From Candidatus Omnitrophota bacterium (GTDB lineage: Bacteria; Omnitrophota; Gorgyraeia; Gygaellales; Profunditerraquicolaceae), in NCBI GenBank assembly GCA_028716965.1, contig JAQUOV010000003.1, positions 5,302 through 69,301 on the forward strand: a stretch of 64,000 bases of DNA, given 5' to 3'. This document shows, in pieces, positions 8,542 to 63,900 of this stretch (its first letter is position 1; each line of letters opens with the position of its first letter). A model generated the notes under the pieces. That model did no database searches. It was not told where the DNA came from and saw only the letters and a program-made list of their open reading frames with translations. The position numbers were made by a program, and so were the translations under genes.

Positions 8542-8593
8542 AAAATGAAAATACCTCTTTTCCTGGTAGATTAAGAGAAAAATATTTACTTTA

Positions 8594-8622: not shown

Positions 8623-8676
8623 GTATTTTTAAGAAGTAATGAAAAGATTGCCCGGAAGGATATAAATTACAGGAGA

Positions 8677-18905: not shown

Positions 18906-21900
18906 ATTTGTACCTCAAGAAATTTCTGATATAGCGGTCATCCAATATATCTAAAGAAAATATTCTTTTACTGCCAAGGTTGCCGCCCACACACGCCCCC
19001 ACTCCCAACAGGGACGTTTCTGAGGTCAATCGGGGGACGTTTCTTGAGCCAATCGGAGAAGTGTCCCCTTCAGCTGCCAGCGGCGAGGCGGATTTTTCAT
19101 TCGTTCTCGGATCGAAACAGGTAGTTAACTTTTCAAGTACTGCTTCCTTAATCTTCTCATTTAGCGAAACGTTATCAAGCGCTTCAAGTATTTCTGCCGC
19201 ATCTCTGGAATTTAAGACTACATGGTTTTCAACCAACGCTGTTAAAAAATCAATAGTCCTGTTGACTGATTGTCTTAAAGCCTTAGCCATATCCTCTTCA
19301 GTAGGATATTTCAGAAGCCTGTTCATATTCAATCCGGAAAGGGAATCAAGGAGGCCGCGGATAACGTCCTGTGCGATAACCGGCTTCTTTAAAACATAGA
19401 AAGGCGTTAAATCCGGAGTTAAGCGATACAGCACCTCCCATCCGGCTTCCTGATAATACCTGCTGGAAAACCTTGGTAAGTGCGCCTGCGTCACAATTAA
19501 ATACCCTCCCGGACGCACCATATGATAAATTTCATCGAGCGCTTTAGTTGCCGCCTCCCAACTCAATACATCCGCGCACAGCACTCCCTCCAACACAACC
19601 AAATCAAATAACCCCTCTTCTAGCTCATCGCTCAACCTTGCAGCATCGGCTTTAATAATACGGCCCTGAGTGATGCCGGCTATCCGGAAATTCTTCCTGG
19701 CAGCCTCAATCATATCCTGATTAATATCCGAGCCGAATACCTTGAGGTTTAACCCATTTTCCCTGGCCATATTATGGATATCCGTCAGCCGTAAACCCAA
19801 AGCGCAAGCCGGGTCTAGAACCTTTATCTCTCTCTTAACTGCAATTTCTTCGGAGAACAGTTCTTTAGCCCAATCGGCAATAAGGAATCCGAGAACACGG
19901 AACTGATAAGACTGAACAATCATATATCCTCTTGCGCCTCTATCCCAAAATGAATTATTGCGCGGCTCTATTGTGTAGGTGCCCCGTGACTCAATTTCAA
20001 TGCCCTTCGTCCGGCGCAAAAGCTCATAAATACCAAACTGGGGCTCAAAAAACTCTGCGTTAATCCTGATTCCCGCCATATCACTTAAGAAACTTCCCGG
20101 GATACCTTCTTCATCTTTATGAAGCACAACCTCCACAATCGCCTGGCCAACTTTTGGCCCTCTAACTCGTACGCTAATAACCGCGTCGGTACGCACCCTA
20201 AGCTGCCCCCGTCGCCCGCTCTTTATAGCCTCCAGAACAAACTCTTCCCATTCTGGACTTTCAGAAGTAAGGTCCTTATCATAATCAGCCGTTACTTCTT
20301 TAACAGCCATTAGCGGACGAATTGCCTTTAAGCGGGATGCCATCTTTTTTTGCTCAACGGCCACCCTTCGTTTTATCGCGCCTCTTCGCTCAGCAGAGAT
20401 AGAAACCACGCAGTCAAAAGCAAGCTGTCTTGTCTGGCCGATGTAATAATTAACATCCCTTTTGCTATTTGAGCCATTAAGCCCGAAACGAAGAGTAGTT
20501 TGCATGCCGTTATCCAGGGAAACAGGGACATAAGCCACGCCCTGAGGCAAAATCCTACCAACTCTGCCCGCTATTGGGACAAGCATGCTGTGATTAATAG
20601 ATACTCTGGAATCCTGCCCCGAAAGAAGCGGCGGACTGGGCAAAGCGCTTGCCATCTTAAGAGCTAATGCGATAAGATTAAGCTTTTCATATCTTATCAG
20701 CGTATCCTCGTTTTGCGGCGCGGGCGATTCTTCGGCGGTCCGCTGCAATAGCGTGTAAGAATCAACTGCGCCCAGTGGCAATTCATTTCCCTGCCGGGAA
20801 GCCAGACATTCTTCCAGACACGTCTTTAGCCACTCCCTAACCTTCTCTACTTCACCAAAATAAGCCGCCTTCTGTAAAATGTCCTCCACCGCGTTTAAGG
20901 GGAATTCTCCAAAAAAGTACCCGCAAAAAGAACCGGCTGTATTCCAAAATAAGAACCCGTTGCTTTCCTCCTCTTTCTTTGTCTGACAAAGAATCCACAG
21001 CAATTCCAGGATTTTGAAATAAACCGAGGTCTTTGTATCCTCAATTTCTCGTAGTTCAGGGTGTTGAATCCAGCTCATACAGGCGCTCTCCCCGGGCCTG
21101 CCCATAGTCGGCACATAAGAAACGCCGGCTTCGCCGATAATGCCTTTGGTTAATCCCCATGAATAATGCCCTCTGTGTTCGTCGGTGATAAAAAGTTTCT
21201 CAACCTCCGGCCGCAGCCTAAACGAAGCTTCTTCAACAAAGAAACTCCTTCCTTTATTGTAAATTTCCTGCATCCCGATATCCTTCAACAAAGTAGTTGC
21301 TTGTACTAGTAAGCCGTCGACTAAAACAGCCTTAAGAATTCCAGGCTGAGTGCTTGCCACGAGATTCCGCTCAAGCGGGGAAGCGCCCGTAGGAGGTAAC
21401 CTTGCCTGCGCCAGTGGCGAGGCAGCATGAACTTTATCTGCCCTTATCATAAAAGTAATAAACTCTACGAATTCTTTATCCCCTATAACCTGGTATTTAA
21501 TAGCCTGTCTTATTTTTTCGCTTGCGTTATTAAATAGTCTATACACTGTATCGAAATCATCATATTCTCTTAGCCATCTCTGTAAATCTAACATGAAATT
21601 ATATGTCCGTGTTTCGGCAATGCAAAAACCTGTTTGTCCTAGAAGATGTTTCAGACCCGACATTGAATAGAACTTAAAATCTGTCGGCTGTCTTATCCTG
21701 CTCATTTTATTAAAAAATTCATCTACCTCTTGGTCTTCATAAGATAAAACGTCTAACAGTATCAAGCTGGCTCCTATCTTTAATGCCCTGTTTACATTAC
21801 TAAGCGCTTTTTTTGCAAACTCAAAATGATGGAGAGAATAGCGCATAACAGCAAAATCAAAATATGATTCAAAATAGAGGCCAAGTTCGTAGGCGTTCAT

Positions 21901-24900
21901 TATTCTAAGCTTTATCCTATTATCTTCCCCAAGAAGTTCTCTGCCTTTACCAATAGCTGGCTCAGAAATATCCGTACATAATAATTCCTGGAATTCCATT
22001 TTTGGAAGAATTCTTTGCCAAACTAAACCCATTCCAGATCCTACATCAATACCATTGCCATTTAGAGATAATGTGGATATCCATTTTTCATGGGCCCTGA
22101 TTACTTCTGTATGAAAATTATGGGCGCCCTTCCGCAGGTAATGTCCTAAATCACGCCTGGTATGCATGTATCTGTCTATGCCATCCAACGGCGATGCGCT
22201 AAAAGAAGGTTCCGATGACAAAGAAGCATGCTCTATGGTCTTTACTAATTCCCTGAATGGCAGACGCAAACTAAAGCGTTTAATTCTTAAAAATTCCCAT
22301 GTTTCAACGGATAATTCCTTTACCCTTTCCGATGTACTAGTAATAAAAATGGGAGGTACGATTACGCCTGATCTCTGCCTGTATTCCAGTTTCTTGATTA
22401 AGGATATTCCGTCCATTACCGGCATTTCTAAATCCATAAAAATAACGTGTATTTTTTCATTATCAATTATCTCCAGCGCTTCTTTTCCGTTATAAGCACA
22501 AAATATTCTATATTTACCGGGATACAGGAACTCAAATACTGGTTCCATCCGATCTATAAAACATGCTATATCATTGACAAATAGTATAGACTTCTTTTCA
22601 GCCTGCGCCAGCGGCGAGGCGCAGTTAGAACGCAAAGGAGAACCGCTTATTGCTCCATTTATGGCTTGATGTTTACGATAGAGTATGAAGATTGACCACA
22701 ATATTAGATATGCGGCTTGCCACTCTCTTATCGTCTCTTTCAGGGTTCTCTTATTCGACTCTAATAATGGACGATAATTCTCTTCAAAATCTTTTATCCC
22801 CCTATAAAACCCTTGCGGAAGCCATCTGCCGAAAATATGGTAAATAGCAAATTGCCTGGAGTCATCATTGAGTAGTATCAACTGCTCCAAAGTAAAATCT
22901 TCCCCGGCTGTCGCAGGCCGCATATATTTATACTTAAGCGTCCTTCGTGCAAGCGCTATTTTCTGCTCATCGTTTAGATTTTCTATTTTCTTGCGCATCG
23001 AAGTCAACGGCTCATAATCAATGGTCAAGAATATCCGCATCGCCGCCTGCATTTGTCTCAGCCATTTTGGTTCATAATACAATTTCTTAAGAAGCTTCTG
23101 CATCCCCTCTCCCCTAAGCAAGATTTTAACTCGTTTACCGGAGGTCAAAGACCGGTTTGCCACTAACGGAGAGGCGGCCGGCAGTTTATCACTTACCTTG
23201 CCCTCTCCAGCTACTTTTAAAACAGATGTTCTTACCCTGTTGGAATAGTAGCGAAAATCTACGGACTCAAGCGTGAACAAACCTGCTGAATTATATAATC
23301 TCTCTGACGGATGCTCGTCAAAAGGATCCTGGATTATAATAATTCCATTTCCATTCAGGAATAAAGACATATTCCGCAGAGCTGCGATTTTATCCTGCTC
23401 GCTGATTGAATAAGTATCTGAACCATCACCAGCGTCTAACCGCCCAAACAAAAAGATGGCGATCACCAAATCGTATTTACTATTTGCGATTCGCGCGGGA
23501 AATGAGTTAATACCCAGAATATTTGCTTTATATATTTTTGTTTCTAAGTCGGCGGCTGAAATATCAATGGCCTCGGCTTCAATACCCCATGATTGCAAAT
23601 TCCTTAACAGTTTATCGTGATACGAACCAACTTCTAATGCATGAATTCCCGGCCTTGAGCCCAGCCATTTACTGATTGCCCGATATACCGGGATAAGCTT
23701 CATATTCCAGAATTCCGGAAATCTGCTAAATCTCTCTGCATTCAGCAATATTTCTCCATCAGAATTAAATCTTACCAATTGACGATTAGCATCAGCATTA
23801 TTCCTAAGGAGGTTCACATTTTTATCCAGCGGCGAGGCGCCATCTTTGCTTCGCTTGACCTCATCACCTAGAAACTTCTTCTTGATCAAAACAAGTTGTT
23901 CAGGTAACCACTTATCGAAACTGCTAGTCAAATAAACTCTTTTGTGTCCTATTAATGCTTTGTTATTTTCTACGCCTAACTGGTCAAAGATTACCATAAT
24001 GCTTTCCCTCACCATATTCAGAGTAACGCTATCTAAACCAAAAATGGTAACTTTTAATATTAGGCGCCCCTCATTAGTTAGAGGTGGTTGAAAAATCGAT
24101 AGCCTTAATAATTTACCAAAATTTGAACCCATATCATTGGTTAATTTGACTTTATCCTTCGGACGGTGTTTAAATGCAATGTTCATTGTAAAACTTTTAG
24201 GAAGGTAAAAGAAACGAACAATATCATCGACTCCTTTTGCAATAAAACGCGATGCCCCTGCGTGAATACCCAACGGATCCATTAATTTCACCTCGAAAGA
24301 ATCAGAATATTTTTGCGCCAGCGGCGAGGCGCATAATACAGGACGAACCTGAAAAGTAAACAACCGTTCCTCAATCAGACTGTATTTTATTTTCTTCGGC
24401 ATATCTTTAACTCTATCGCTCAAATCAGCCAGTTTTCCCGAACTAATTATCCTGCTGCGCAAAGCGCCGAATCCTTCATTAGAACAACTTAAGAATAAAC
24501 CGCGATCATTAATGAATTTTTCTGGATCACCCCAGTAATATTGCACAGAAAGATATCCTTTTAACCAGGAAATAGGAACCATCATCATATAATCAAGTTG
24601 CGAGTCAGTGTTTATTCTCCTGAGCTTTGCTTCTTGTAAAATGATTGCATTAATAACCCCGGCGTTTTCGCAAGAGTGATCTTTGAACGGGAATATATCG
24701 TTAACATGAATATTTATGGCTCTGTCAAATCCAGCGAATTGGATAGCCCTAAAGGCAGATGCGCTCTTTGCTTCTTTTACACCCTGTAATCTCAACAGTT
24801 CGATAAAACTGTTTACCAATGCTTGCTTTGGCATTACTTCGGTAATAATATCTATATCTTTTATATGAACCAGCTTCACAGCCCTATTGATATCGGCCAA

Positions 24901-27900
24901 ATAACGCGCACTACCTACTATCAATCCTTTTCCCCCTAATAGATATTCAAGATTATCAACTTTTAGCCAACTTTCTCCTTTTCTATTAAGAATCAGCGGC
25001 GAGCCGGCGGATTTTTTTTCAGCCGGCCTGCTTTTTCTTTCTATTTGCGCGAATGCGCACGCGCTGCTATCAAGATCATTGTGAACGGCAGTTAAGCTAA
25101 GCTTCCATTGCTTCAATACTACGCGTAATCCCCGCATTCTCAGCCACTCTCTGGGCATACGGATAACAGCTTTGCCTTTAGCATCAAGATATTTCCCAAT
25201 AATAGAAACGCTGCGGAGCATAATCCGGAATCCGCCTTCTTCTCCCCATTTATTACAAGCCCAGCCGAATGGAGGGTCTGCAAAGATTTTATTAAATACC
25301 TCTCTCCCCAGCTTCCTTTGGACCCCCCGCCGTTCGGTTACGTCTTGCTGAAAAATCCATATTCCGCACTTAACTTCCGGCCTAATAACTTCCGGATAAT
25401 ATCTAAACATGTGGAAAAATAACCTCTGGTTATCTGAAGCATGGAAAGCGGTGCCCGGATTAATATCTAGACCTACAACTTCTGAACCGTATAACGTAAA
25501 GAGCATGCTAACATAACCCCTGCCGACGCCTAACTCAAGGACTTTATCATTAGGCCCAACCCGCAACAGATTATTAACGATATAACTGATATTCTGGGCA
25601 GAGAGCAATTTTACATCATTCTCCATTTGGATGCCTCTATCTGTATTAAAGGCAGGCGCAGGCAGGTCTCTATATAACTCCGGGAAGGTTGGTATTGTTA
25701 ATCTCTTACCGGCGGACTCTGATAATATATAGCCTCCGGGAAGATTAATAAATAATTCTGGATGCAATGATTCATACGGAATGACATGCAATGCGGAATT
25801 ATGGCACGGCATAAGGTCTTCCTGAAAACGGATACCCGGGCGATATCTTATATAATATTCTCCTAAGGGGTTCGGACCCATGCCTGAACCAATCGCGGAC
25901 AACCTATTGCCGTTGAAGGATAGCCCTTCCTCCAAATTATCTCCCAATTGTTTATTTAATAGATTAAGGAGGTTCGTGTTGCCTTGAACCTGGTGAACAG
26001 TACCTGATGGAAAAAGGCATTTCAACTCGTATCCTGCAATAGTTATCTTTCCCGTATCTATAAAATTCTGCCCGCCCTGATTACTGACAAGTTCTCCCCT
26101 TAATGAGACCATAATGCCCTTCTGCCTAAGCTCTTCTCTAGTAAAACCGATGATCCTGTCAAGCCTGGACTTTAACTCTTCCAGCCCTCTCCCGCGCGCA
26201 TTAAACATAATTCTAAACATATTCCCGGAGATATATTCAGCTGTCCCGATAAAATCCTCGGAAATGCTTTTAAGCGTTTCATGAATATGCTTTCTATTAA
26301 AATAAGCGGCGGGGCTGCCTATGTGTATATCCGCTGATACATACGAATCTGCTAAGCGGCTGTTCAATATGCGATAAAGCAATGCCAGAAGCCTTGCATT
26401 GTCCTGCCGGGTTAGGCCTGAATTAAAGATAAATCTTATGCCTCGTAGATCTTCCTCTATGCAAGCAAGCCCTCCGTAACGGCTGAAGACGTTCCTTGTT
26501 TCTTCGTAAGCACGCCCAAGAATAAAATTAGCGAAGGCCGGCCCATACCGCTGATGCATATCGCTTAATCCGCCTATACAAATAATCCCCATTACTGCGT
26601 GTTCGTCACTGCAAAAAACAGCCGTTTGCCCTCTAAGGACACCTGCCGGCAGGATTCTTTCCGACAATAAATACGTATCCTGTTTAGAACCTCGCACAAT
26701 ACCTAAACCCTTTTCATTCATATAACCTGCGATTGCCTCAACTATGCAAGGATCTGACAAATCCAAGCTATCTGTACCTGCGGGGTTAGGAAACTTTTCG
26801 AATGCACGCTTTATCAATAACCACCTGCTATACTGACGCGAAAAATCTATAATCATAGGTTCAGTTTTATCTTTACTGCCAAGCGGCGAGGCAGTATTAT
26901 AACTTACTGCTTCTGACTTTTGCATATAGGCTTTTGAACAAGCTGAACTGCCGACAGCGACTGCTAACCCCTCCAGACGATCTCTGCTTATGAAAATCTT
27001 CATATGGCAAACCAATTCTTCCCATTGAACCTCTTCGCGCAGTATTTCTAAAACATCATGCCAATAAATAATTTTCTCAAGCATCATTTTTATAAACTGT
27101 CGCGCCTCATTATCTACTCTAACTTTGCCTCCAAAAAATTCCAAAAGGGCTTTTTCATCTTCATCCTGTACACAACCCTCCCTTGTGCGTAATTCTAGAT
27201 TCCGGAAGATCCATCTGATACTCCCGCGCTCATCTAATTTTTCTAACAGCAGATCAACCATCTTCTTGACTCTTAGCATTTCGGACAAATCTTTCATAGC
27301 TGCATTTAAATTAGCCGGTTGTTTTTCTATTCTAATTTTAAAATGTTCCCTTATATATGCAAGCGAATGCTCGGTCCACATTAAATCCACCTGGATAATA
27401 CCGGATTTTAACCCAAGGCCTAAAGACGGATACTGGATATTCAGAGGATCTTCACTGCAAAAACGCGATAGCTCTTTGCGATAGTTATTCCAGATTTCAT
27501 CAAATACCTGCATAAAAGTTTTATGCGAGTCTTTCTGCTCTGGTGGTTCAGGAGGTATCACGACAGGAGATTGTTCCTCCATTTCGCGTGAGAATATATT
27601 AAGATTTACATATAGAGCTCCCAATGATTCAAGGATTGCTTCTAAAATTAGCGCCTCTGAGCCGGAAAGCGCAGTATTATGGGTTTCTCGTAATACAGCT
27701 TGCAGCCTGCTACATTCTTCCAGCAAGCTTCTTGCTCTTGTGTAATCATCCCACTGCTGTAAACCTGCGCGGGACTGCTCATCCCGGATAGCCTTAATCA
27801 GATTCCCGGTTTTTTTAGTTGCTTTGATTTCCTGCGCCGCCAACGCCTCCCTGGCGTCATCTAAAATGGCAAAAAATGCATTTACACGGGACTGAAAACG

Positions 27901-30900
27901 CATGTAATTTATAAAACTATTCATCTGCTCCTTAACTGCTTTAAGCACGCTTAGATGAAACTCCAGATCCTTGGCAACCGCAGTTATATTCTTCACAGGC
28001 ACTGTTAATATCTCCAGCCTGGCTTTGGAAAGCGGCAACTGCAGTTTCCCCTGAGCGCTTTTTAATTTATCATCGGCTTTCTGCAAATCCATTAAATAAC
28101 TTTTGGTAGTAAATTTATCGACAAATAAAAACCTGAGCCACTCATTCCGTATTAAGCTATGGATTTCTAACACTGCGCTCATCAATGGATGCCTTTTTGT
28201 CCCGCAAGCTTTAAATACCACATCTTTTAACCGTGCGCATATCTGTTCTAGCAGGCTTGCAGTCAATTTTAATTTATTATTAATATCTCTGTTCTCTTTT
28301 TTGGCATCATTAAGAATTTGACCGCAACCAGAAGATACCGGTGGAGAGGAAGCAAAAAGGATATGACCAACCCCATCTTCACATGATCTGCGAACAAGTG
28401 GATAAAAACCAATGGGATGCAAAATCGGCGAGGCGATGGTATTATTTACGGGAAAAATAGAACAGGAGAGCTGAAAAAGCACGGCACCAGAAACAAAATC
28501 AACGAATTTCCTTGCATCCCTGGGAAAGAAATTCGGTTTATAATCATATACTGAAAAGATGCTCATTCCTATACTATGCGCCCGATACTTATTCTGAATA
28601 AGCATGCAAGAATGAGGAAAAACCAAACTATCTATGCAATCTAAATTCCTGCCATTAACGCAGATAGAAAAATCATCCGTGATGAAAACGATAAAATCTA
28701 CGGAGCTATCTTTAAGGAGCAAATGATCAAAAATTAAACGCATAAAATAAAATATATCTAAATTACCAGCGTCCGAGAGATTTATAAATCCTTGGGCGAC
28801 TGCAGTTTTTAACTGCGCATTAGGGGTTAAATAATGCATCTTTGTCTTAAAAATACTAAGCTCTTGACTAGCCTTTTCATTTATCGCTCCGGCAATATCA
28901 TAGCGGTGCCGCGCAAGCATGCCAACGCTGTCTATGCTTGAAATAACAATTGCCAGATTAGCGGGTTGAGAATTCATTCCAAAGCCGGCTCGGCAATAAT
29001 TCTTCTCGGCAGGGCTACTTGTGCCATTTGAAGTTGCAAATAGTCCATTCACTAAGCCTGTTCGCCTAAGCGGCGAGGAGCTGCGTTGATCAGTGCATTT
29101 TGGATTTGTAACTATTTTCTTACTTTGACGCCTCTTACGCTCATCTCTCCACAATAATAGCAAGCTAAGAATAGGAACCAATATAAAAAGTGGGATAACA
29201 ATATAAGAAAAAGGTGTTTTCTTAAGAAAAACGCATAATCTTTCAGTACCTTTAGAAAAATCATTTAACCAAGCCAATAAACAAATCCCATCAACCATGC
29301 CTAATATAGCTCCGAGAATTATGAACCAGGCTTTAATTGACCAAAACTGATCATTCTCAACGTCAGGTTCTTTGGCTTTATCCGCCAGCGGAGATGAGGA
29401 ATCAGGATTATTACTTTTATTGGTTATTGGTTTAATCTCTGACAAATACGGTTTAAATCCATTTATTTTCTCCAGCATATTATCCAAAAGCATGCGCATA
29501 TTTTGAAGCCCGACGCGTAAACTTGGATAGGCGTAAAGCGCATCCCGCATCCGCTCCACAGAAATGAGATAATTCTGGATCCTCTCTTCCAGCCTCCCTA
29601 TTTCAGCTGATACTTTTTCTTTGGGACGCGGCCACTCTGCCCAATACCCTTCATCAACCTTACGGAAATCGATCTCCAGGGATTCAAAGTTTTCAATAAT
29701 CTTTCGTATATCTATATTGATAAGGGAATGGAGTTCGGCGATATTGTCTTCAATCTCCCTGGTTGCTTCCAGAATTCCTGCTTTTTTTTCTCCGGCATCC
29801 AAAGATCCTGATATCTCCCTCAAAAATTCTGCGCCTTTCTTCAGCACGTCAGAAAAAGAAGGGAACCCCGTGATATCCGGTTTACAATCCTGGCGAAGTA
29901 AATCAAGTAACTGGCTGACACGCTTATCAATTATGAAACTATGCGGCAAGACAATTGAGGTAACAGAGGGTAAACCATTTTTCTGCGTGATACCAATAGG
30001 AATATCTCTTACCAAAATGCCATTTAATTCCCTGCTTGTCCGGTGGTGCTCCAGATATTGCTCTACCGGTATAATTTCTATGCCCTCGTTAACTGTGTTT
30101 ATTCTTTTTTCAGCTAAAGCAGTCAAAGGAAGAGGATCAAGCCCAAGAGCAATAATAAAAAGTGGAACCTTCTGATATTTACGGTAACAATCCAGGGACA
30201 GGCGAGAGATCTCCTTTAATTCCAGCGAAATCTCCTCTAAAGAAGCTGTGCCCGCATCGCTGCCGAGGATAATGTTGATGCTTAGCGACAATCCTAAACC
30301 AAGGATTCTCTTAATAAGATCTTGTGTTACCTTGATATATTGATCTCCGGACTGTGTCTTACCCAAGTGTTCTGCCTGAGAAGGAACAAATGTTTCCACG
30401 CCCACTGTCACTATCTTTATTCCGGCTCCTGCCATTAGCTTCAGCAGCTCTTCATCCGCAGGAGAAACAACCCTAAATTGGCAAATAAACGATACTCTTT
30501 CATTTAGTGCCAGTCTTTTTATTTCATCACATAGTTTTTCTATCCATTCCCTATCCTGGATAAAGACATCATCGGCAAAATCTATCTTTCTTACCCCATG
30601 CTCAATAGCCTGCTGGCAGATTTGCGCTACCCTTTCAGGGCTAATCCTGCGTCCGCCGCTATATGGAATCTGTATTGCGCAAAAGCCGCATTTCCCCGGG
30701 CAACCACGCTGGGCATATAGAGAAACAGACTTAAATCCCGCTTTTTTAAAAATATCCCAAGGGTAATTTATAAGGCTGTCCAATTCTCCTGAAAGCGGCC
30801 GGCAATGAAAATATCGCTGAAGCCTTTCCCCGGCGTCCATGCCCCCTGCTCCCTGTTTTCTGATCAAAACCTCTCCACTTTCCTTCTTCAGGAAGATCCC

Positions 30901-51900: not shown

Positions 51901-54900
51901 TCTCTCCCTGCTTAGTTTTTCTGTTAATACAAAGATATCTTTATCCGCAGTAAAGACGACCCCAAACTCAAATTGAGAGCCAGTCGGTAAAAGGTCACCC
52001 ATCGCCTTCCTTTTTCTTAAAACATCCAAAGCCTTCTCTAATGTATCCTTGACCTGCGCCGCATCAAAACTACCTGGCTGCTCAATAATAATATCCCCGC
52101 CTTTAACATATCCGCTTACGGGAAAAATGCGGCTATCCAGGGTGCCTATTGCAGAAGAAGAAATCTTGATTAAATCCAAAAACCAATCATTCCTCACATA
52201 AATTTTAATTTTTCTTTCAAGCAAAAGTCCTGAATAATCAACCACAACGTCTGCCTTAGCAAGCTGAGCATTTATTAAAGGACCTTCTTCCATCTCCGAC
52301 CTAGCAAATACCTTAAGATTTTGAGTAAAGTTATAACCTTTATTGACGCGATCACGACCATCCCTTTTGTCTAAACACAACAAAGGCAAATCATCCACTC
52401 CGATTTTGATTATCATTAATTCTTCTATTTCTTCCCAAAGCCATGCGTAAATACCTTCCAGAACAAATGCGTAATAATCTTCACCATAATATGGTCCATC
52501 ATGATCCTTCTGCTGGGTCAGTTGAATAATACGCTGCAAATATACCGGAGTGCTCCCGTCCAATAAATCTAAGATTATGCTCCGCATCAATAGATGATCC
52601 ATCATATCGGCACCCTTAAGGCCTTTTTTCCTCCTTTCCTCCCGCAGAAAGAAATAATTATCGGTCTGTAATCCTAAAAACGGAAAATGGATTGTTCTTC
52701 TCAACATTCTTATCAACATCCTGAATAATTCGCTCTTTCCCGATGCCCCAAAGCCGGATATGCCGATCAGTCTCCTTCTATCCCCGGATTCAATTCTATA
52801 GCCGTAGACCTTTAACAGGATTGCACAAATATCAAGGATAATATCGCGAAGTTCGCCATAGAATAACTCAAGACGTGTTATACCTTTCTTAAGCTGCTGC
52901 ATCTTGCACTCAAGATCCAAAGGAACAGTAATCTCTCTCAGCAAAGTAAATTTTCCTGAATTCCAGTTACGCTCATAATGAGGTACCCAAATCGGCTTAT
53001 TCGTTTCTTCGTCAATAATTAGACTGAAATATTTGTTTACCAAGCCATTCGGCAGGCCTCTCTTCAATGCTGCTGAGATCTTCTCAGTCATAATCCTAAA
53101 AATATCGGTCTCCTGCGCTTCTTTGGAAGTTAAAAGATAGTAGTAAGTTCTCCGAATACTATTTATATCAGTTTTAGCACCGAACCGCGATTTAAGCACC
53201 CTCTCTAAGCTTAGTTTATTGTCCTCAAGGCCGCGATACTCTTGTTCCACTTCGGAAATATGGGATACCAACTTCAGCGAAGAAGAGGCAGTTGGAGAAA
53301 ACATACGGATATCTATGCCGAATTTATTTTTCATTTCATTAAATACGCTTTCCAGGATCTTATGGTTATAGCCCGTATACTTAAAGTATTTTTTCCCTTT
53401 AGGTGTAACTAATTCTTCTTTTCTCTGGGAAAAGTAGCCTAAACTCTTAAACGCCGAAGGCCAGTCTACATCGTAGGCGATAATGGTTGAAATACCATAA
53501 TCCAAAACCTGCTTAATTCCGATATAGCGCAAAGTTTCTTCCAAGCCCTTGCGCTGATATGAATCTTGTATATCCAAACTCAAAATCTCCTCCTCCGCCA
53601 TGACGGCAATCTTCTCATCGGGATAAATCCTGAAAATGCTTGTCCCAATCCTCCGCTCGCTAAAATCATCGTAGAGCACATCAAGAAAATGGGATACCGA
53701 TACGCGTGGCTCAATATCTAAAATATACTGCCGGACTATAAATATTGCTTTGGGACTAATTACAACAGCAAGGGCAGGACACTGCCTCAACGAAACCCAT
53801 TTCTTATTGCTTTTAGGATCTATAAGCGCAACGGCATCACCGGTAATTTTTACTTCCTGACTGATCCTCTCGAAGATTGTCTCAAAAGAAACATCTTTAA
53901 GAAGCGGCGCATAAATACTTGAAGATGCCATAAGCCCGTCAATAATCTCCTGGCGGACTTGCGCCATAGGAGAAGAGCCTTTAGATGTTGAGAGTAGTTT
54001 TCCGTTAATAAAGAAGTTACTGGCATTAGGCTCAGGCAGGACTATGAGAGGGAATTCGCTGCGCGCCCCTCCTCCTTCCCAGCCTCCATTCTCCGATTTC
54101 TGCGGCCAGAGAAAACTTAGAATATGCCTTCCCGGCTTTAGGCCAAAAAACGGGACAAAATATTTCTCCGCGGCCTTTCCCTGTAAGGCCGGGATAAAAT
54201 GTTCGTACCCGCTTTCTTTATCTTGCAAATAAACGATAAAAGGATTGTCGTTTTCTATTAGAAGGAGCTGATCATCCAGCAGTAGTGTCTCTTTATACCT
54301 GCTTTCTTCCCAATTCCATTCCACCAGACGCTCTCCCAAACGCATAAAAATATTGCGCGGAGTTTTTCCCGGCTCTCGCAGGCTCTCAGCAATCAGCCCG
54401 CGTTCAGGTTCTTTGACGGAAGGAAGAATATGTTTACGCATCCACTCTTCAGGGCTCTGCTCAACCGATTCAAACCGGTAAATACCGATTTGTCCGGGAG
54501 CCAATTCCGTTTTGAATATCGGCGTATTCAGGACAAGCTGCTTTCCAGTGATGAGTTCTTTAAAAACGAATCTATTGCCTGGATGAAGCCCAAACTTCCA
54601 GAAAGGCAGCGGAAATTCAACTGTCTTAGGTATGTTGCTGAAATTAACTACGATTAAAAGATTATTTCCTTCGTGCGCCTTGGCAACGCATAGCAGGCGC
54701 TCGTCATTGGTAAAAATACGGGTTGCTTCGGAATAATTTACCGCGGAATTGTTCTCCCTCACCCACACACACATCTTTATTAAATCCGAAAAGTCAAATC
54801 GACCTGCCTCCTCCGTTCCCCAGATTATCGCCTGGTCGCTTTCTCTTTTCCACTTTGCCGGTTCTATCGTCCCCAGATCGTCAAGACTGAATATTTCGGT

Positions 54901-57900
54901 CTCTAAGAGGGGAATAAGGAGTGCTAAAGCCAAAAGCCCGGGCCCTCCTATACGTATCGCTTCCCTCTCGTTCTGTTCTCCGGTCAAGTACTGCAATAAT
55001 CCGAGCATCTGCCTGAAGAACCGCTGGTGGTCGTGGTTGCCAACTACAGTTTCTATGGCTTTACGGGAATTCTCTATTAGGTCATCACAATATCTATCCA
55101 GAGTTTTGAAACTTTCCTCAATATGGATAAACGAATACTGGATAAATCCCAGCCAATCAAAATTTATATCGCCTCCCATCTGCTCTATAAGGGCTAAAAG
55201 GTTATTCTCGCGGAAATGTTCGGCAAGCGCCCCTGCCAACAGACAATGATTGTTATTTTCGGGTAACCTGCCATAATCAATATTCTTATCCCCGCAGCCG
55301 CACTTATGCAAAGCATCTATCCACCAGCCGCTGATACCGGGGCATAGTTTCGTCCAGTACTTATACGGTTCTATGCGAGGATCAGTCTTGCCTTCTGCTA
55401 CGAGCCGGGCAATAAAATTCTCATCCCATAAAGCCAAATCTGCCCACTCCTGGTAATCGATCCTGTCGGGGCTACGCACTATGCTCCCCGGGCTCTGTAT
55501 TTTTCCATCTATAACCACAAAGTAATCCGGGTTAAACTTCGCCTCCGTTCCCTCTTCTGAGGGATAAAAAGGCATAGTAGGTAAAATACGTATACCGTCT
55601 TTCTTAAGAGAATTCTCCATTTTATTTAAATTTTCTACTCCTACAAACTGTTCATAGAAAATAAACTCTTCCAATTCCGGATAACTCAAGGGCTCCCTGC
55701 CGAAATACCGTGTTTCTTTATAATTTATTTTATCTACACCGTAACCTTCCCATAGAGATATTCTTTCTTTAGTTAAGCAGGCGTATTGCCGTATTTTCTC
55801 AAATTCACAAAACCTCCTGAACGCCTCCTTCCTATCGCTTTCGGCAAATTGTTTAAAATGTTCAAACTTATCAACTGGGAATTCTCCTGCATCTTGAACC
55901 TTGTTCCAGTCTATTACTCCCGGGTGCAACGCATAGAAAGAAAGAGGCGCGAATGGGCTTGACCAAGGTGTCGGAAAAAATGGAGAGAGGATGAAGACAT
56001 TTTTGCCGGTTTTCCTGTTGAGCTGACGGATAAAATCCTCTATCTCCGCGAAGGTAGGAACCAGCCTATTTTTTATAGTGTAACCGGACGAATATCCGGA
56101 TGTAATGACATCCGGAAGGAAAACATAATACGGATGGTAAGTTTCCCGCTTGAGCCAATCAGGGACTGAATGAATGTGTATAGTAGCAATGGAATCCAGT
56201 TCTTTAGCCCAAGAACTCTGGTTCCTGAGCCAGGCATAAGCTTTGAAATTAAAAAACCCGCTCAAACGCTGGGGGGTGAGTTTTACTTGCGCGACAAAAA
56301 CCTGTCTACCTTGCTTATCTCTTTCCTGATAAACATTATCTGCTGGTGCAGTAACATCATACCAGGAGTCTTTATAAGGATTATCCATGTTTGTGCGCAG
56401 CGCAATCGCCAGGTCCTGCGGCCTCAAGCCATATCCGCTGTTTACCTTAACAATGATTTTAACCTCAAGGCTTTCTCCCAGTAAGAGCGGAATATAGCTT
56501 CCGGCAGACGGTTCCATATCCAATTCCAATGCCTCCAGAGGCACATCTTTACGCAATTCCTCTAATTCTTGAGGAAGCACCGCTGAAGACGCTCTCCCTT
56601 GTTCGCAATTCTTCCTCCCAAATAAATTACTGCCTCCGGATCTTTCTTCGGTATAGCTAAGCGCCCGCATCACTGCTCCTAAAAGATCCGTTGCGATGGG
56701 ACTGGAGGTAACCGGAGATTGCAGAGCCACGACGGTCAACGTTTTTAACGGTTGATCTTCCTGCAAAGGGGTCCGAGAAATTTCATACGGCAGCCCCTGG
56801 CTGTCTTTACTAATGCCTATTTTCACAAATCCTGGATAGTGCCGATATTCTTTCTGTCGTTTGGGATAAAGAGCCTCAAACAAGATACGGGGACGGGAGC
56901 CTTTTGGCAGGTCTATTACACGCATGCTCATTCCGTCTGCCTTGCTTTTCAAATACATAACGAATATGCGCCCTTTTAAAGAATTTCTTATGCGGTTAAA
57001 ATTCTCTTGCAGATTTGCAGTGAGAGGAATTTCATCCGCATAGAAAACCTGTTTATCGCCTTTCGATCGCTCATAAGGAAACTTATATAACAGATACGCC
57101 CAGTACGGAATTACCCCCAGCTCTTCCTCTCTCGGCTGCCTGCCGCTGACATACTTTTCATATTCGGCCGGCTCAATAACCACTATTTCAAACGGCAAGG
57201 GCTTTTTACCTTCCCTAAATGCTATCGCAAAGCTTAAACGAGTCGCTTCATATCCTTTTTTGGATTTGACCTGCGGCTTAGTTCTATACCGTATACCTTC
57301 ACTTTTAAGGTATTTGACAATTATTTCTTTTATTAAGTACCTATCTTTGGTGATAACACGCACCCCCATGATGTCAACAACCTTTCTTCGCCCTTCTTCG
57401 CGCAGCAGGCCCTTGCGTAAAATACTGACCGCGTCTTTTACTCTGCTTTCGATTTTTTCAACGGTAACCCCGGATTGCTCAAATTGAACCTGCAGTTGAA
57501 AAGAAAATCTCCGTAATTCATTCTTCATTTCTTTGCGGGAAAGCCCGTATTTTACTTCAAGATTTCTTTTAATCTTTCTATAGAGGGCCGTGTGTACGAT
57601 CTTAAAAGAGATACTCCTCATTTTTTCAAATAATATGTATTCGTTAAGGCGTGCCGACAAAGGTACAAGAACTTCTTCAATTTTCCTATAAGTATAACTC
57701 TTTTTCCATTTGGTCGCTTTTGTCAATGCCTGAGTTTCATCCCCAAAATCAAGCACCAGATTATCCGCATCTCCGCAGGACTGGATAACGGCATTCTGGT
57801 AATTCTGTACGGTATTGCTTCCTTCAATTTCAGAAATAATGCCTCCCACAAATGGCCACCCCATTGAAACCTTTTCCAGGATTTCAACCGAGGCTTTTAT

Positions 57901-60900
57901 CGCTTTCGCATCATATTCCCGCAGGTATTCAAGTTTTTCCCATTGCCTCTTAGCAAAGAATCCTTTGCGCTGCTCTTTTGTTAATTTATGACAGAGGGCT
58001 GCCAAAATTATTTTTACCGGCATCCTCCATATCGCTAAGGTCAAGGCTACCTTCAGGGCATGTTCAAAATATGTGTCCTTGGAAAGGAATGCTTTACCGC
58101 CGTACTCTTTTTTGACTGCCCAGGCCCCCGCCGTAACAGCCCTTGCCTGCGCAGGGCTATAGTTTACCCATACTTCTTTCTTCAGCCGTCTAAAAATACG
58201 CTCTTCCTTCGGAGTAAAAGAACCCGTGGAAAGGACAACTGGAGAACTACTTCTAATTCCCCTCTTTCGTTCCTGCTTAAACGAATCTATTATTTGCCGT
58301 AATTCCGAGGCGTCTGCCTCGCAAGCGCATTCAGGCAACACGAATTTACGCCACAGCTTACCCTCCGATTCAGCCAATAATTCTCTATAATGACTGACGG
58401 ATAGAATACGCTGGCGCACCCATGAGGCCGCTATTTCTTTAACCCCTTCTTCGGAGACCCCTTCATAGACGCGCTCTACATGATAATAGTACCCTCTTCT
58501 CACAAATTCCGTTGAACAGCTGACAAATCTAGGACAAGAAAAATCAATTGATTTGACCTCTTCTAGGCCTAAATTTAAATATTCATAGATAACACACTTC
58601 CCAGCTTGCGCTATTGCAGATGCAATAATCTTTTCAATTTCATCAGGGTTATTAGTTCCTTCCGCTATCTTCATTAAGAATTCTTTCAATATATGCGTAG
58701 AATAGCCTGCTTCAATTGCAAATAATAGATAATTTATGTACCTTTCTTTTGCCGCTATTTCGCCTTCTTCAAAACCGCTCCTTAACTTATTTGACTGCGG
58801 AATACCAGATACACGCTCTATGGTAGCAGCAAGGCCAGGGAATAAGAAAACAATAACCCCCGCTATTACTGCCAGTAAAACGTATCCTGGCGTAATATTA
58901 CAAATTTCAGAAATCGAACAAAGGTAATCAATAGACAGGATTCCGATACACCCCAAAACTAGATATCTGAGGGTATCAGAGGAAACCGGGCTGGCAGAAT
59001 GCTGCCTTCGCGGAAGCTCGCTTCTTTCAAGCCCTTCCATGACCATATCCGATATTTCTTCTGCAAAGATATCTGGATTACCGGCAATATGCTGCTCAAA
59101 AGAACGGGTGGATAAGATACTCATCCCTGTCCTATGCGCAACAAATCTCTTTAAGTTAGGATTGCCGACAAGGCACTCCCCGTATGGAACCAGCCAGCTT
59201 ATAACAGGAACGGGCCTCTGTTTCCCCGCTTGGCTATCTTCAACTGCCAAAGCCAGATCCGTGACAACAAATACGAAATTATTTTCCGATATTACCCCGG
59301 GCATGAGCCGGAAAATTACGGAGGGGAAATAATTGAACTTTATGTAACGTAATTGCGAAAGCACATTAAGGTATTCTTCCTCGGGGTCGAGAACTTCATC
59401 CGGATCCTGCGATGTTCTGCTTAACGGCTGATAAACTATTTCCGGAGTATAGGTTATATCAAACTTTGTTCTCGCCTTGCGATGTATGGCGCCGCATACT
59501 CTTTGCCTGTTTTCCCATAGAAGCGTTGTATCGTCTTTCGTGATAACCGCTATTGCCACCTTAAGGAATTCCTGACCTGATTCCATGGAATTGGGTAGAG
59601 CAGGACTGGATCCCCCCCTAGAGATCTCCTCCAACGCGTTGCGAATAATCTCAAACCCCCTGGCGACCTCCTTGGGGCCGATGTCTTTGCTTTCCAATAA
59701 ATCATCAATTGCAGCGATACCGAACCGTTTAAGAAATAACAGCTTGGGAAACAACCGCTTCTTAAAAATATATCCGTCGTCATAGTCGATATTACCTGCC
59801 AGGATTATCGCTTCCTGCAGCGCATTCTTATCGGCATCAGTGCAAAAATCATCGCATTCAAGCGCAACTCCATCTACAATATCCTGCAAGAATAGCAATA
59901 CCGTCTCAAGAGAAGTAAATGTGGTTATATCCGGATTATCTATGCCTGCGCCGACTATACCGATTATCTTTCCTTGGTATAATACCGGCCCGCCGCTTGT
60001 GCCGCATTCTGACCCGGTATCCAAACTCATACGCTGTTCAAAATGACCAAAGAGTATCTTTTCACCTGCCGATGCTATGCGCCCCTGATATAATCTCAAT
60101 GAATTTTTTCCGATTGGATATCCAAGGATAACTGCATGTTTTCCGCAAATAGCCTCTTTAGATACCAATGCCGCGTCTGCCAAAGATATAGTCCGTGTAT
60201 ATTCTTTCGCTATCCCCTGCTTTTTAATTCTTAATAAGGCTAAATCAACTGAAGAAGAGCGAAAAGTATCTGCTACGACCTCCGCCTGTACCTGTATCCC
60301 GTTCCGAAGCCTTACTGTGACATCGGGGTTATATTCCCTGCGTGTGAATGAAAATGGATTGGTTACGTGGGAAGCGGAAAGTATATAATAATGCTCCTCG
60401 CTTGCATGAAAGACCACCCCTGTCCCTTCTCCGATATCTGATATATCCCGTATCCCCAACTGCCTAAGCAGGAACCCCTGATCATCTTCTTCAATGCCGC
60501 CCCAGCCTATTCGGATCCTTACAACTCCATTTTGCATCCCCTTGATAAAAAACTTGGGGCCTAAATAATAAGCAGCCGTTATATTTGCCGGGCTGCCAGC
60601 GCTCCGTTTAGGATTTCTGGATATATCCCCTATCACCTCAATACTCATAGTGCCGGCAAGGGCTTTGCCCGGATTCAAAATTACGGGTGTTGCTTCTAAT
60701 ATTCTTTTCTCCGTGTATAGGTTAAACGCATCGGTAGCTGATGTCTGCGGCTCAATACAGATAGTATCCTTATCTGCGGGAGCATAAAATACAATATGCT
60801 TAAATACGGAGCTTTGGGTTACTTTGATGAGGATACCTTCGGCAGGATTATAGAGCAAAGATGTATCGTGGGACAAATCGGTAAAGGCATCATCGTAATT

Positions 60901-63900
60901 CAGTCCATTTAAATAGCGAAGATGCCCGAAATAAAAATCCCCTTCTGAGTAAACCGGAGGGCCGGTGGGCATCTGGTTGACGGATGGCCAGAGCTTTCTG
61001 ACCGGCAGCATAACCTGCCAATTTTGCCTTTGCGGCGTATTAAACCAGGGATGAAATGCCCAACTCATTAACAGAGGCTTGCTGTCAAAGCTTTTGACGT
61101 AAATAATAACGTCCAGTTTATTAGCTTTTAGCCGATAAGTTACTCTGGCTATGAATGCCCCAAAAAAATCCCTGATTGCCTTATGCGCCTGTTCTCTTGT
61201 GTCAAGAGAACAGCTGATAAACACTCCGCGGGCGTCTTTTCCCCATTGCCTGACTTCCCAGATGCGTTTACGAATAAGCCCATGGTAAATATGTTTGCCG
61301 CCGCGGATGTCATAAGTAGCTCCCTCATCTTCCAGACCGGACAAATCTACTATCCTGTCTTGTAAATCAATAAATTTGCTATCTCTAATCCTGTTCGCGA
61401 ATGGTCCCAGTATAGGGTTTCCTCCTGGATAAAAAAGTATCTCTCTGCCATCAACCATATAAGATATAGCCATTGCTCCTAGTCCAGGGACAATATCAAA
61501 TGAAGAGCCATAGGTTAAATCGGATGAACGGAAAATCCTCATGTTCATATGATTTTTGCGCTCCCACTCAATAAAAGTTTCCAAGCCCAAATTTGGCTCA
61601 TCCAATGGAGAAGAAACAGGTTCCTTATCAGCCCAAACCTGAAGCAATGTTCTGATTTTATTTATTCCGCGCGTAAATCCGTTCTGTTTTAGACTGTTCA
61701 TCTTTCTGACCGTCTTGCCTAATTCCAACAAAAGCAGCAGCAAATCCCTGGTTTTATCGCTATTACTATGCTTCAATACCATCTGACGTATAAAAGGGTT
61801 TTCTTCCATCTCCACTATCTTGCTTTTTTCACTAAGCATGCCATAAAGTTGATTTAATCCTTCCAGGTTAACTTTTTTTCCGTTAAAGATTACTGCCTCA
61901 AGAAGACTGGTTAATAAGTTCCGCATTAATCCTTCGATCGCTTGAATATCATTTTCAGAAGGCATTAGGCCGAGAAAATCTTGTTCGCCTATCCTGCTGC
62001 GGCTTAGTATCTTAAGCCTTGTTTCAACTATCCCCATTAAATCAACAATTCCCTCCCCGCGCTTAAGATAATCTTCCTTTAATAACCGGTATAAGTCAAA
62101 TACTTCATCTCTTTTAGATCTTCCCAATTTTATAATTAAGGAACGAAGAATTCCTTCCAGATCATTAATCCGGGAGGATAATAATCCTTCATTAATCCTT
62201 TGTTTTAGATTTCTCCATTCTATACGAAGCATTCTCTTGCGCAAATTTTCAATACTAGTCAAACATTCTATTTTTTTTGCAAAAACCCTTAACTCATTCT
62301 CAAGATTAACAAGATTGTCGCCTCCGGCAGGATGCGCCTGGCCTTTCATGATAAGCAGGCATCCCAACGGTGAAGCGGATGAATTTAAAGAGAAAAGGGT
62401 ATTAACGAGAATAAAATCCGCGGGGAGGTAAATATAAATAGGAAGCTTGCCTCCTTTTAGGCCTGAGGCGTACTCTTTTAATTCTGAGAGTCTGGAGACT
62501 ATATTTTGCACTAAATCCTGCGGCCCGTTTACCAATATTCCTGGTGTCAAGCCTATAAAATCAATTTCCGGCCTGTCTCCTATCGAAATTGCCTGATGAG
62601 CCCTTAGCTTAAAATATCCAAATGCATAGTTATGCATTAGCGGTGAGGGTTTGCCTATTTTTATATCCTGCTGGGTCAAAACCAGGCTAAATAGCTTATG
62701 AATATCCAACGCCCGTAATACATTCAGAGTAATCATCCTGCTATTGTTGCTTTCCATAATAAGGATAAATTCCCTTGATAGCTCTGCAAGTAAAGTTTTC
62801 AGCTCTTTATCAGGGCTAAAGTATTCTTTTGGGCGCAATTTCTTGCCCAACTCTTCAAAATAAGCATTTACATCCAAGCCAAAGAAACGCAACATCCCGG
62901 ACATGCTGTTTTTCTCAGTTTTTACTCTTTTTAAATCCTGCAATGTTACATCTCTTCTCCCTTGCCTGCGCAACTGCTCCAAGGCGAACTGGTAACATAT
63001 ATTCTTATTTGCATCGCTAAATTCCTTGTTCTTTATTAATGTGCCGCCCAGGTCGATGATCAACAGCCTGAAATCTACCGGAACAATATTAGCGCCGGCG
63101 GGCAATATTAGCGCGGAAGAACAAATTTTTCTTTTACCTATCGTGCCCTCCAAAACAATATGCCATCCTGAACCTTCTTTCTGCTCTGCGCTGAAATATT
63201 TTTTGAACCAGTTTTGGACTTTTACATTTGTCGTAAGGCTGAATATTTTCCACCCAAAATATCTTCCCTCAAGAAAAACCACGGTATTCTCGGTAATCTT
63301 AGACATAAACCCCTGATTCCGTAAGGCTATCTCTGCAATTGAACCGCTGCGCCCCAGCGTTCTTTTGCAGGAATTAACCCTCTCCTTATATAAATCTGTA
63401 TTTATATGGATAATAAACTCAAACTCTTCATTCTCTGCGTCACCCCGCAGAATCTTACGCAGATGCCATCTTATGCGCCAGGCCGCGTCAATAAGCATTA
63501 TATAGTCAACTTGATTACAACTCTGACTATGCACTTCCAGGGCAACAGCTAACAAAGTCTTCGGCGAAAATATCGATTTCCATCTTAAGGTTCTTTTCAA
63601 CTCTTTGCGCACATAGCGCAAGTCTCCGGAGATATCGGTAACAGGGACCGCTTTATCGTTATTCAGTTCTTTGAATGCCTCAAGTATTTCCTTGCTCCAA
63701 ATCCCGGACAGTTTTTCCACTGAAGTTCTAGTTATAGAAGATACCTGGCGACTTGCCAGCGCAGAAGAGCTGAATTTTATCAAAGAAAGGGCCTCCTGGA
63801 AAGAAACCAGGTAGATGTTGCCGCTTGAAGGAGATTGGGAAGGCAAATATCCATCTATAACGAAGATATCTCCTTCTACCCCCTCCCTTATAACCTCTCC

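Follow-up and report, generated by a model that had tools for sequence, protein, structure and literature searches.

The giant open reading frame and its recurring motif

The DNA analysed here, called the window, is a stretch of 64,000 nucleotides from contig JAQUOV010000003.1 of a Candidatus Omnitrophota bacterium. It holds a giant open reading frame (ORF) on the minus strand (18892..63948), which encodes 15,018 amino acids uninterrupted by a stop codon and consists of around 30 gene-sized modules with unrelated enzyme domains. A short peptide motif, [AGS]SP[LIVM], with Ala-Ser-Pro-Leu (ASPL) as its leading form, recurs at nearly all junctions of these modules, as well as in related giant genes, and is the subject of this study. 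The start codon of the giant ORF is TTG, directly preceded by AGGAG. More than 20 distinct families (Pfam and NCBIfam) tile the protein, none of them dominating, and the Pfam envelopes make up 22% of it. The domains comprise HAD, aldose 1-epimerase, trypsin/HtrA-like protease, RelA/SpoT and GH77; uridine-kinase-like, ACT and HD domains, a half MFS transporter and several methyltransferases; Ser/Thr-kinase-like, PvcA-like and SidJ-like domains, two copies of NadD, NAD(P)HX dehydratase and an APH-like kinase; and HD, B12-binding with radical SAM, and response-regulator receiver domains. No paralogy between modules was detected at E 1e-3 or better, and on this ground tandem module duplication was rejected as the way in which the motif spread.

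The motif is far more frequent than the composition of the protein predicts. The tetrapeptide ASPL occurs 16 times against 0.30 expected, and an unbiased scan singled it out as by far the most over-represented 4-mer (P ~1e-22). For [AS]SP[LIVM] there are 28 sites against 1.35 expected, for [AGS]SP[LIVM] 31 against ~2, and for the bare SP[LIVM] 40 against 11, while the remaining 13 ORFs of the window (5,911 residues) contain 0 copies. The first-pass annotation of this DNA had counted about 35 copies, which is roughly right: the strict form [AGS]SP[LIVM] yields 31, and a looser set that also allows Ala or Phe in the last position yields 38, including at least one chance site (SSPF at residue 2663, inside the GH77 domain). 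The coordinates listed there proved accurate, each falling within 1–3 nt of a site, and the spacing given as one site every 400 residues was an approximation of a mean of 481 and a median of 252. The inter-site segments range from ~106 to 1,457 residues, if the few short spacers that separate tandem sites are left aside.

The last residue of the 31 sites is Leu in 22, Val in 4, Ile in 4 and Met in 1, and the residue that follows is mostly Ala, Val, Gly or Asp. The 12 residues upstream of the sites are hydrophilic, with Ser, Thr and Pro abundant. The impression that the motif is often preceded by Lys or Arg was borne out only marginally (1.06 versus 0.79 such residues in the six upstream positions, P ~0.05). 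The ORF has only five [AGS]SPA sites in total. The form ASAL, in which the Pro codon is changed to GCG, occurs 6 times against 1.0 expected. Enrichments of the tripeptides NPD and GNP were set aside, as they share no common context. The sites and the modules that they delimit are listed below; mismatches refer to the 14-nt nucleotide core of the motif, and residue numbers are those of the giant protein.

18892..63948, minus strand: giant ORF, 15,018 residues, ~30 modules
19078..19089, minus strand: junction ASPL, residue 14954; GCCTCGCCGCTG, 0 mismatches; last junction, 61 residues before the stop
21373..21384, minus strand: junction ASPL, residue 14189; second of a tandem pair
21412..21423, minus strand: junction ASPL, residue 14176; 1 mismatch; end of methyltransferase module 13922-14179
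22186..22197, minus strand: junction ASPL, residue 13918; end of response-regulator module 13781-13921
22609..22620, minus strand: junction ASPL, residue 13777; 0 mismatches; receiver domain 7 residues after the Leu; within a 20-nt perfect repeat, TGCGCCAGCGGCGAGGCGCA
22633..22644, minus strand: junction GSPL, residue 13769; tandem partner of 13777
23164..23175, minus strand: junction ASPL, residue 13592; next module homologous to residues 1461-1662 of metagenome contig L089, there also after ASPL
23827..23838, minus strand: junction ASPL, residue 13371; 0 mismatches
24319..24330, minus strand: junction ASPL, residue 13207; 0 mismatches; start of homology to L089 residues 8003-8120
24994..25005, minus strand: junction GSPL, residue 12982; 1 mismatch
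26881..26892, minus strand: junction ASPL, residue 12353; 1 mismatch
28423..28434, minus strand: junction ASPI, residue 11839
29068..29079, minus strand: junction SSPL, residue 11624
29386..29397, minus strand: junction SSPL, residue 11518; end of HD/B12/radical-SAM module; two transmembrane helices open the next module
32539..32550, minus strand: junction ASPL, residue 10467
33169..33180, minus strand: degenerate junction SSAL, residue 10257; Pro codon CCG changed to GCG
33586..33597, minus strand: junction SSPV, residue 10118; transmembrane helix directly after
34252..34263, minus strand: junction SSPI, residue 9896; tandem partner of 9882
34294..34305, minus strand: junction ASPL, residue 9882; 1 mismatch
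34807..34818, minus strand: junction SSPF, residue 9711; C-terminal end of the NAD module; AASPV at the equivalent place in the homologue P0006
34807..39177, minus strand: NAD module, residues 8258-9714; NadD, methyltransferase, NAD(P)HX dehydratase, kinase, NadD
39178..39189, minus strand: junction ASPL, residue 8254; 1 mismatch; N-terminal boundary of NAD module 8258-9714; the 83%-identical L089 block starts exactly here
41782..41793, minus strand: degenerate junction ASAL, residue 7386
42697..42708, minus strand: junction GSPI, residue 7081
43207..43218, minus strand: junction ASPL, residue 6911
43945..43956, minus strand: junction ASPL, residue 6665; end of module 5850-6668; the L089 homologue ends with SSSSL
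46402..46413, minus strand: junction ASPL, residue 5846; next module begins with two transmembrane helices and is 49% identical to L089 residues 4819-5611
47155..47166, minus strand: junction SSPL, residue 5595; variant SSPA 17 residues downstream (47104-47115)
50530..50541, minus strand: junction ASPV, residue 4470
53965..53976, minus strand: junction SSPM, residue 3325
56695..56706, minus strand: junction SSPI, residue 2415; end of RelA/SpoT-like module 1905-2418
58237..58248, minus strand: junction SSPV, residue 1901
58984..58995, minus strand: junction ASPV, residue 1652; two transmembrane helices after
59599..59610, minus strand: junction variant SSPA, residue 1447; C-terminal flank of the protease module
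59929..60432, minus strand: HtrA-like (trypsin-fold, S1) serine protease domain, residues 1173-1340, in module 1122-1450; triad motifs SASHV, VDLALL, GTSGGP
60586..60597, minus strand: junction variant GSPA, residue 1118; end of the aldose-epimerase module, N-terminal flank of the protease module
61603..61614, minus strand: junction SSPL, residue 779; N-terminal boundary of aldose-epimerase module 783-1121
62365..62376, minus strand: junction ASPL, residue 525; after the HAD module

Placement of the sites between modules

The proposal that the sites lie at domain boundaries was confirmed. None of the 28 [AS]SP[LIVM] sites falls inside a Pfam envelope (P ~9e-4), compared with 4 of 16 control xSP[LIVMFA] sites, and blocks of homology to other proteins start at the motif. 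Domains begin shortly after the Leu: position 3 of the NadD profile aligns at +3, and the receiver domain starts at +7. The segment of 1,457 residues between 8258 and 9714 carries five domains and no internal motif. Four pairs of sites stand in tandem, 8–17 residues apart, at residues 5595/5612, 9882/9896, 13769/13777 and 14176/14189 (window 47104-47166, 34252-34305, 22609-22644 and 21373-21423); these could represent redundant sites, spacer peptides or scars of a deleted module.

Four modules start, after a site, with one or two predicted transmembrane helices (~58825-58965, 46192-46356, 33523-33579 and 29152-29322), and the half MFS transporter lies in the middle of the ORF (~48370-48930). 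Together, these features indicate that the chain or its products would be inserted into the membrane repeatedly. NCBIfam additionally matches a SidJ-family glutamylase/pseudokinase of the Legionella effector type and Ser/Thr-kinase-like domains at residues 7851-8078 (~39715-40398) and 5650-5816 (~46500-47000).

All ORFs of at least 200 residues in the window are on the minus strand. The 3' end of the giant ORF overlaps by 14 nt (18892-18905) with a PilZ-domain gene (18183-18905), an arrangement that suggests translational coupling, and beyond the PilZ gene come ABC-transporter, glycosidase, TPR and ROK genes. Such neighbours point to an ordinary bacterial chromosome context. An exact search for the product of one neighbouring gene returned no record.

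The motif in other Omnitrophota

An exhaustive profile-free search with residues 8258-9457 as the query returned relatives of the whole five-domain segment, referred to here as the NAD module. All six of the six named whole-module relatives belong to Candidatus Omnitrophota/Omnitrophica. In two Omnitrophota genomes the module is a stand-alone gene of 1,445–1,592 residues with an N-terminal signal-like sequence and unrelated neighbours. Elsewhere it is embedded in larger proteins and accompanied by the motif: the partial giant ORF OGX22801 has RSASPI at the start of the module and VVSSPM at its end, the partial giant ORF OQX87347 brackets it by SSSSI and VSSPI, and P0006 has AASPV at its end. 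On the Omnitrophota contig L087 (1-11961) the module is split over several abutting ORFs of the same strand, and P0006 begins in the middle of the dehydratase domain; this contig probably carries a giant ORF that frameshifts or errors of assembly have interrupted. Copies of the NAD unit were located in the window (34807-39177), in L086 (9677-14338) and in L088 (38-4816), and the copy in L086 has an in-frame stop after ~95 residues.

The motif is also enriched in other giant ORFs as a whole. L084 contains 7 motif sites against 0.5 expected, and L085 has 5 SSP/ASP sites and 9 SSS[LIV] sites against 0.4 expected. The metagenome contig L089 is one continuous ORF over 24.4 kb, with 7 copies of ASPL (0.14 expected) and 16 of [AS]S[PSF]L (1.2 expected). 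Its NAD module is 83% identical to that of the window at the amino-acid level and 84% at the nucleotide level. Four modules are common to L089 and the window (83, 49, 39 and 23% identity), and they occur in a different order. For each of them the similarity starts exactly at ASPL, and the sequence upstream is unrelated. The first-pass suggestion that the shared nucleotide core serves module shuffling thus gains indirect support, from four reordered modules and similarity that begins at the motif. Searches with other parts of the protein returned little: a scan of genome contigs with residues 13781-15018 found generic response regulators only, and a word-indexed homologue search gave nothing for the C-terminal 4,999 residues and nothing for residues 11522-13375, which likely reflects the limits of the word index and the orphan nature of most modules.

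These comparisons bear on two proposals for what the motif does as a peptide. One is proline-directed phosphorylation of the Ser by kinase-like domains of the same protein. The S-P dipeptide is invariant in the canonical copies, and APH-like, Ser/Thr-kinase-like and SidJ-like domains are present. Nevertheless, many junction copies, both here and in relatives, have replaced the Pro (ASAL, ASSL, SSSL, ASFL), and the dipeptide is therefore not required. Moreover, phosphorylation leaves the position of the sites between modules unexplained, and proline-directed kinases are a feature of the eukaryotic CMGC group. We regard this role, which the first-pass annotation had raised, as most improbable.

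The other proposal sees the motif as an uncleaved structural linker, a short rigid or kinked Ser-Pro-Leu hinge or docking element that spaces the modules of one chain, possibly anchored to the membrane at the transmembrane segments. It agrees with the location of the sites at module boundaries in hydrophilic, S/T/P-rich stretches, and with the internal transmembrane helices and the MFS half-transporter, which could anchor an intact chain. Giant Omnitrophota proteins have also been detected by proteomics and proposed to form a cell coat (PMC10066038). However, a generic linker needs no specific four-residue word that is kept across genomes despite a switch of the Ser codon family, and a hinge leaves unexplained why the last position is aliphatic only and the next residue small. 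Modules also occur as stand-alone proteins with putative signal peptides of their own. On balance, an uncleaved linker appears unlikely. An AlphaFold model of residues 13596-14192, computed without an alignment, reached a predicted local distance difference test (pLDDT) score of 33, and disorder of the linkers is not readable from such models.

The nucleotide core and codon choice

The motif is conserved at the nucleotide level beyond what the peptide demands. Read on the plus strand, the core is CCAGCGGCGAGGCG; its reverse complement, C-GCC-TCG-CCG-CTG-G, encodes Ala-Ser-Pro-Leu in the frame of the giant ORF. No word of the window is repeated more often than this 14-mer, which is also the top direct-repeat family of the gene, including one 20-nt perfect pair. 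The figure of about 20 near-identical copies, as first noted, was overstated: 4 copies are exact, 6 have at most 1 mismatch and 14 at most 2 (0.25 expected). With up to 3 mismatches there are 28 copies (3.15 expected), of which 23 read on the plus strand and are in frame in the giant ORF, 4 lie on the opposite strand inside the ORF, and 1 lies in the 18.9 kb outside it, not in frame. The in-frame copies all point the same way and are read in a single frame. The idea of a genome-wide word, for instance an uptake or Chi-like sequence, was rejected because the 18.9 kb outside the ORF holds no in-frame copies and only the one match with 3 mismatches.

The codons of ASPL depart far from background usage. 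The Ser codon is TCG in 11 of 16 copies, compared with a background of 0.094 (P ~1e-8), and CCG (14/16), GCC (10/16) and CTG (8/16) are likewise favoured; in 22 of 28 copies a C occupies the synonymous position just before the motif, where the background is 0.18. In the degenerate forms ASAL (GCG, in the window) and ASSL (TCG, in L089), the altered codon can be reached from the Pro codon CCG in one step. The one-step degenerate copies and the shared codons suggest that the junctions stem from one ancestral sequence and have since decayed, rather than having converged independently on a peptide. Copies differ along the gene. In its C-terminal third most [AS]SP[LIVM] copies have 0–3 mismatches and a nearly perfect nucleotide core, and in the N-terminal third the copies (SSPV, ASPV, SSPI, SSPM) have 3–8 mismatches and still keep the class [AGS]SP[LIVMA]. 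This gradient is as expected if the modules at the 3' end had been added or homogenised more recently. The consensus also differs between lineages: the Ser codon is TCG in the window and in L089, whose codon pattern is that of the window, and AGC in L084, which keeps the CCG-CTG-G part. The codons drift in the N-terminal third and differ in L084 and L085 while the peptide stays, which points to selection on the peptide. Synonymous variants had already been taken as a sign of such selection, and this stands, as the inter-module signal is found again, with different codons, at the corresponding junctions of other giant ORFs from Omnitrophota; it is incomplete as an account, for the codon choice is itself strongly non-random.

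Two explanations place the function of the motif below the level of the protein. In one, the core of ~14–16 nt, C-GCC-TCG-CCG-CTG-G, is a recombination or micro-homology site at which gene-sized cassettes would enter, be exchanged or be lost in frame, and ASPL is only its tolerated translation. The biased codons (including the synonymous C before the motif), the restriction of the top direct-repeat family to the giant ORF in one orientation and frame, the lineage-specific consensus (window and L089 versus L084) and the L089 homology breakpoints exactly at the core, with shuffled module order, all agree with such an element, and the tandem double junctions could be deletion scars. On the other hand, the N-terminal third has drifted while the peptide class is kept, and L084 and L085 retain the peptide with other codons. 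Furthermore, the window contains no recombinase, the site shows no inverted repeat or structure, and the core is short for homologous recombination. We therefore consider a primarily DNA-level role rather unlikely. Quite unlikely, in our view, is also a dedicated in-frame cassette system with the motif as its core site, in which Omnitrophota would capture whole genes into giant ORFs (up to ~147 kilo-amino acids, kaa), replace their start region or signal peptide by a fixed junction of ~15 nt and recombine there, the translated junction acting as the cleavage site that frees the enzymes. If true, it would amount to a genome-encoded 'fuse-and-cleave' substitute for the operon with a recombination grammar of its own.

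The second explanation is a programmed translational pause, in which a rare Ser TCG followed by Pro CCG slows the ribosome at module ends for co-translational folding or insertion. TCG makes up only 9% of Ser codons and yet appears in most ASPL copies, CCG and CTG are over-used, similar preferences are seen in L084 and L089, and Pro is a slow substrate of peptidyl transfer. However, L084 has AGC, a common Ser codon, in this place, common codons also make up the degenerate copies of the N-terminal part, and a pause accounts neither for the need for Ala or Ser and an aliphatic residue nor for the conserved flanking bases. A pause signal is accordingly very unlikely. Two further candidates were rejected: an RNA structure at the motif (GC-corrected folding energies equal those of random positions, and no Rfam family was found in the window) and internal translation starts (no excess of Shine-Dalgarno-like words or of Met after the sites).

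An embedded protease and the proposed processing of a polyprotein-like chain

The giant ORF encodes a protease domain of its own (Pfam Trypsin_2, 1.9e-12; NCBIfam HtrA at E 7e-5, far below the family cut-off). Its catalytic triad is intact, with His in SASHV, Asp in VDLALL and Ser in GTSGGP, as aligned with P0001. A structural model of the protease (pLDDT 51) retrieved almost exclusively HtrA-family proteins among its top 50 Foldseek matches (DegP/DegQ/DegS/Deg1, HtrA1/2, HhoA; template-modelling score ~0.5), and a PDB sequence search with the protease module gave no match. P0001, a stand-alone protein of 258 residues with 35% identity, is the only sequence relative of the domain found in a search of 5.8 billion proteins; its neighbours (L081-L083) are small phage-like genes (5'-3' exonuclease, dGTP diphosphohydrolase-like). 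Both flanks of the protease module end in Ala (GSPA at residue 1118, SSPA at residue 1447), which recalls, post hoc, the atypical cis-cleaved flanks of viral polyprotein proteases.

Ala-Ala-Pro-Leu/Val/Phe is the classic substrate core of chymotrypsin-fold and subtilisin-type serine proteases. HtrA-family enzymes prefer Leu or Val, then Ala, Ile and Met, at P1, and a small residue at P1', and tolerate Pro at P2 (PMC4481513). The variants of the motif, with Leu more frequent than Val or Ile and these more frequent than Met in the last position, a small residue next and Pro before, fit these preferences. For these reasons, putative cleavage after the aliphatic residue is the reading that we favour.

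We hold with moderate confidence that the locus is a polyprotein-like giant gene, in which the motif would be a module-junction signal and a predicted protease site and the junction DNA would serve as crossover points that travel with the modules. The protein would be a chain of ~30 autonomous gene-sized modules, some with membrane anchors of their own, and [AGS]-[AS]-S-P-[LIVM] would be a conserved junction signal immediately N-terminal to each module. The motif would most likely form the P4-P1 part of the recognition site of a serine protease that would cut after Leu, Val or Ile and before a small P1' residue; candidates are the embedded HtrA-like protease (residues 1173-1340) or a similar enzyme acting in trans. 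Each module freed by such cutting would have a nearly native N-terminus, and its C-terminus would carry a short tail that ends in SPL. The junctions, being presumably homologous DNA, would at the same time provide in-frame crossover points for the exchange, duplication and deletion of modules between giant genes, and older junction copies would accumulate synonymous changes and single-step substitutions in the Pro codon. Crossover would best account for the agreement of the junctions at the nucleotide level, for the reshuffled modules and for breakpoints that fall on the motif, and we rank it second to the putative protease-site role. The processing role itself is a plausible prediction.

Several observations weigh against this interpretation. 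Some multi-domain modules lack internal sites, so that the motif is not present at every domain boundary. The model of the protease is of low confidence and its S1 pocket is unreadable, no PDZ domain was found by Pfam in module 1122-1450, and the protease domain was not seen in the partial, contig-limited giant ORFs L084, L085 and L089 (Pfam re-run for L089, precomputed Pfam lists for L084 and L085). Cleavage after an upstream Lys or Arg offers an alternative scissile bond, though the enrichment of these residues is marginal. The replaceable Pro weakens a strict recognition model. Finally, a protease site does not require strong codon-level conservation, and the primary function could be at the level of DNA or translation.

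Comparison with known systems

The giant gene belongs to a known class. Omnitrophota ORFs of the 'multi-enzyme metabolic cluster' and Archaeovorin types (bioRxiv 10.1101/2023.11.21.568195; bioRxiv 10.64898/2026.06.07.730766; Seymour et al. 2023, PMC10066038) likewise encode more than 10 kaa in one frame, with many unrelated Pfam families and scattered transmembrane helices, and the closest named relatives of the modules described here are all from Omnitrophota. By its sequence features, the window ORF fits the 'multi-enzyme metabolic' class and not the Archaeovorin or Dockerin types. Cleavage has been hypothesised for the class from C39 and S8 peptidase domains, with the cleavage points explicitly unknown (West-Roberts et al. 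2023, bioRxiv 10.1101/2023.11.21.568195), and, according to that study, further analysis was blocked because no such points were known. A 2026 survey of giant ORFs never uses the words motif, linker or cleavage (Nielsen & Lui 2026, bioRxiv 10.64898/2026.06.07.730766). The present ORF differs in that it has an HtrA-like S1 protease, with no C39, S8, SecA-like or dockerin domains among its Pfam matches, and in its junction motif, which these papers do not report. The motif is real and shared across genomes, and it appears undescribed in the literature searched.

Giant Omnitrophota ORFs are among the longest genes known, and whether they yield one chain or many cut proteins is a question that the motif makes testable. 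It offers the first concrete candidates for the cut or recombination points of these giant proteins, precise predictions of cut sites, and a rule by which giant ORFs can be divided before their structures are predicted and their parts annotated. The assembly of giant ORFs becomes more accessible too, as modules are reordered and the breakpoints coincide with the motif.

Viral polyproteins of the picorna-, poty-, sobemo- and astrovirus type resemble the window ORF in having many products from one frame, an embedded trypsin-fold protease, a short conserved junction site and atypical flanks of the protease (SPA instead of SPL in the window), with processing here being predicted. In contrast to them, the window is part of a cellular bacterial chromosome, its ~30 modules are metabolic and regulatory instead of replication or capsid proteins, and the protease is HtrA-like and not 3C-like. 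MARTX toxins are very large bacterial proteins with interchangeable effector modules at Leu-containing junctions, a repertoire that is mosaic between strains, and a cysteine protease domain that cuts after Leu. Unlike these toxins, the window ORF lacks RTX repeat regions and a C80 cysteine protease domain by Pfam, and it has membrane-protein modules and a longer motif with Pro at P2. Phages and conjugative elements encode polyvalent proteins (Iyer et al. 2017, PMC5512222), which also combine many unrelated enzymatic domains in one polypeptide with a predicted autoprocessing peptidase. They have, however, 2–15 domains and peptidases of zincin-like or other kinds, no junction motif has been reported for them, and they are found in a mobile-element context, whereas the window ORF has chromosomal neighbours (ABC transporter, ROK, PilZ) and no metallopeptidase match in Pfam. 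Integron cassette arrays (attC/attI) share the one-directional gene-sized units, the recurring short DNA core and an order that differs between relatives, but the units of the window are fused in frame in one ORF and the ~14-nt core is without imperfect inverted repeats or folded structure; the 18.9 kb downstream of the giant ORF contains no integrase, and there was no Rfam match.

Viral polyproteins, MARTX toxins, polyvalent proteins and integrons are mechanistic analogues only. If cleavage at the junctions is true, the gene would represent a cellular bacterial counterpart of viral polyprotein expression, applied to dozens of metabolic enzymes.

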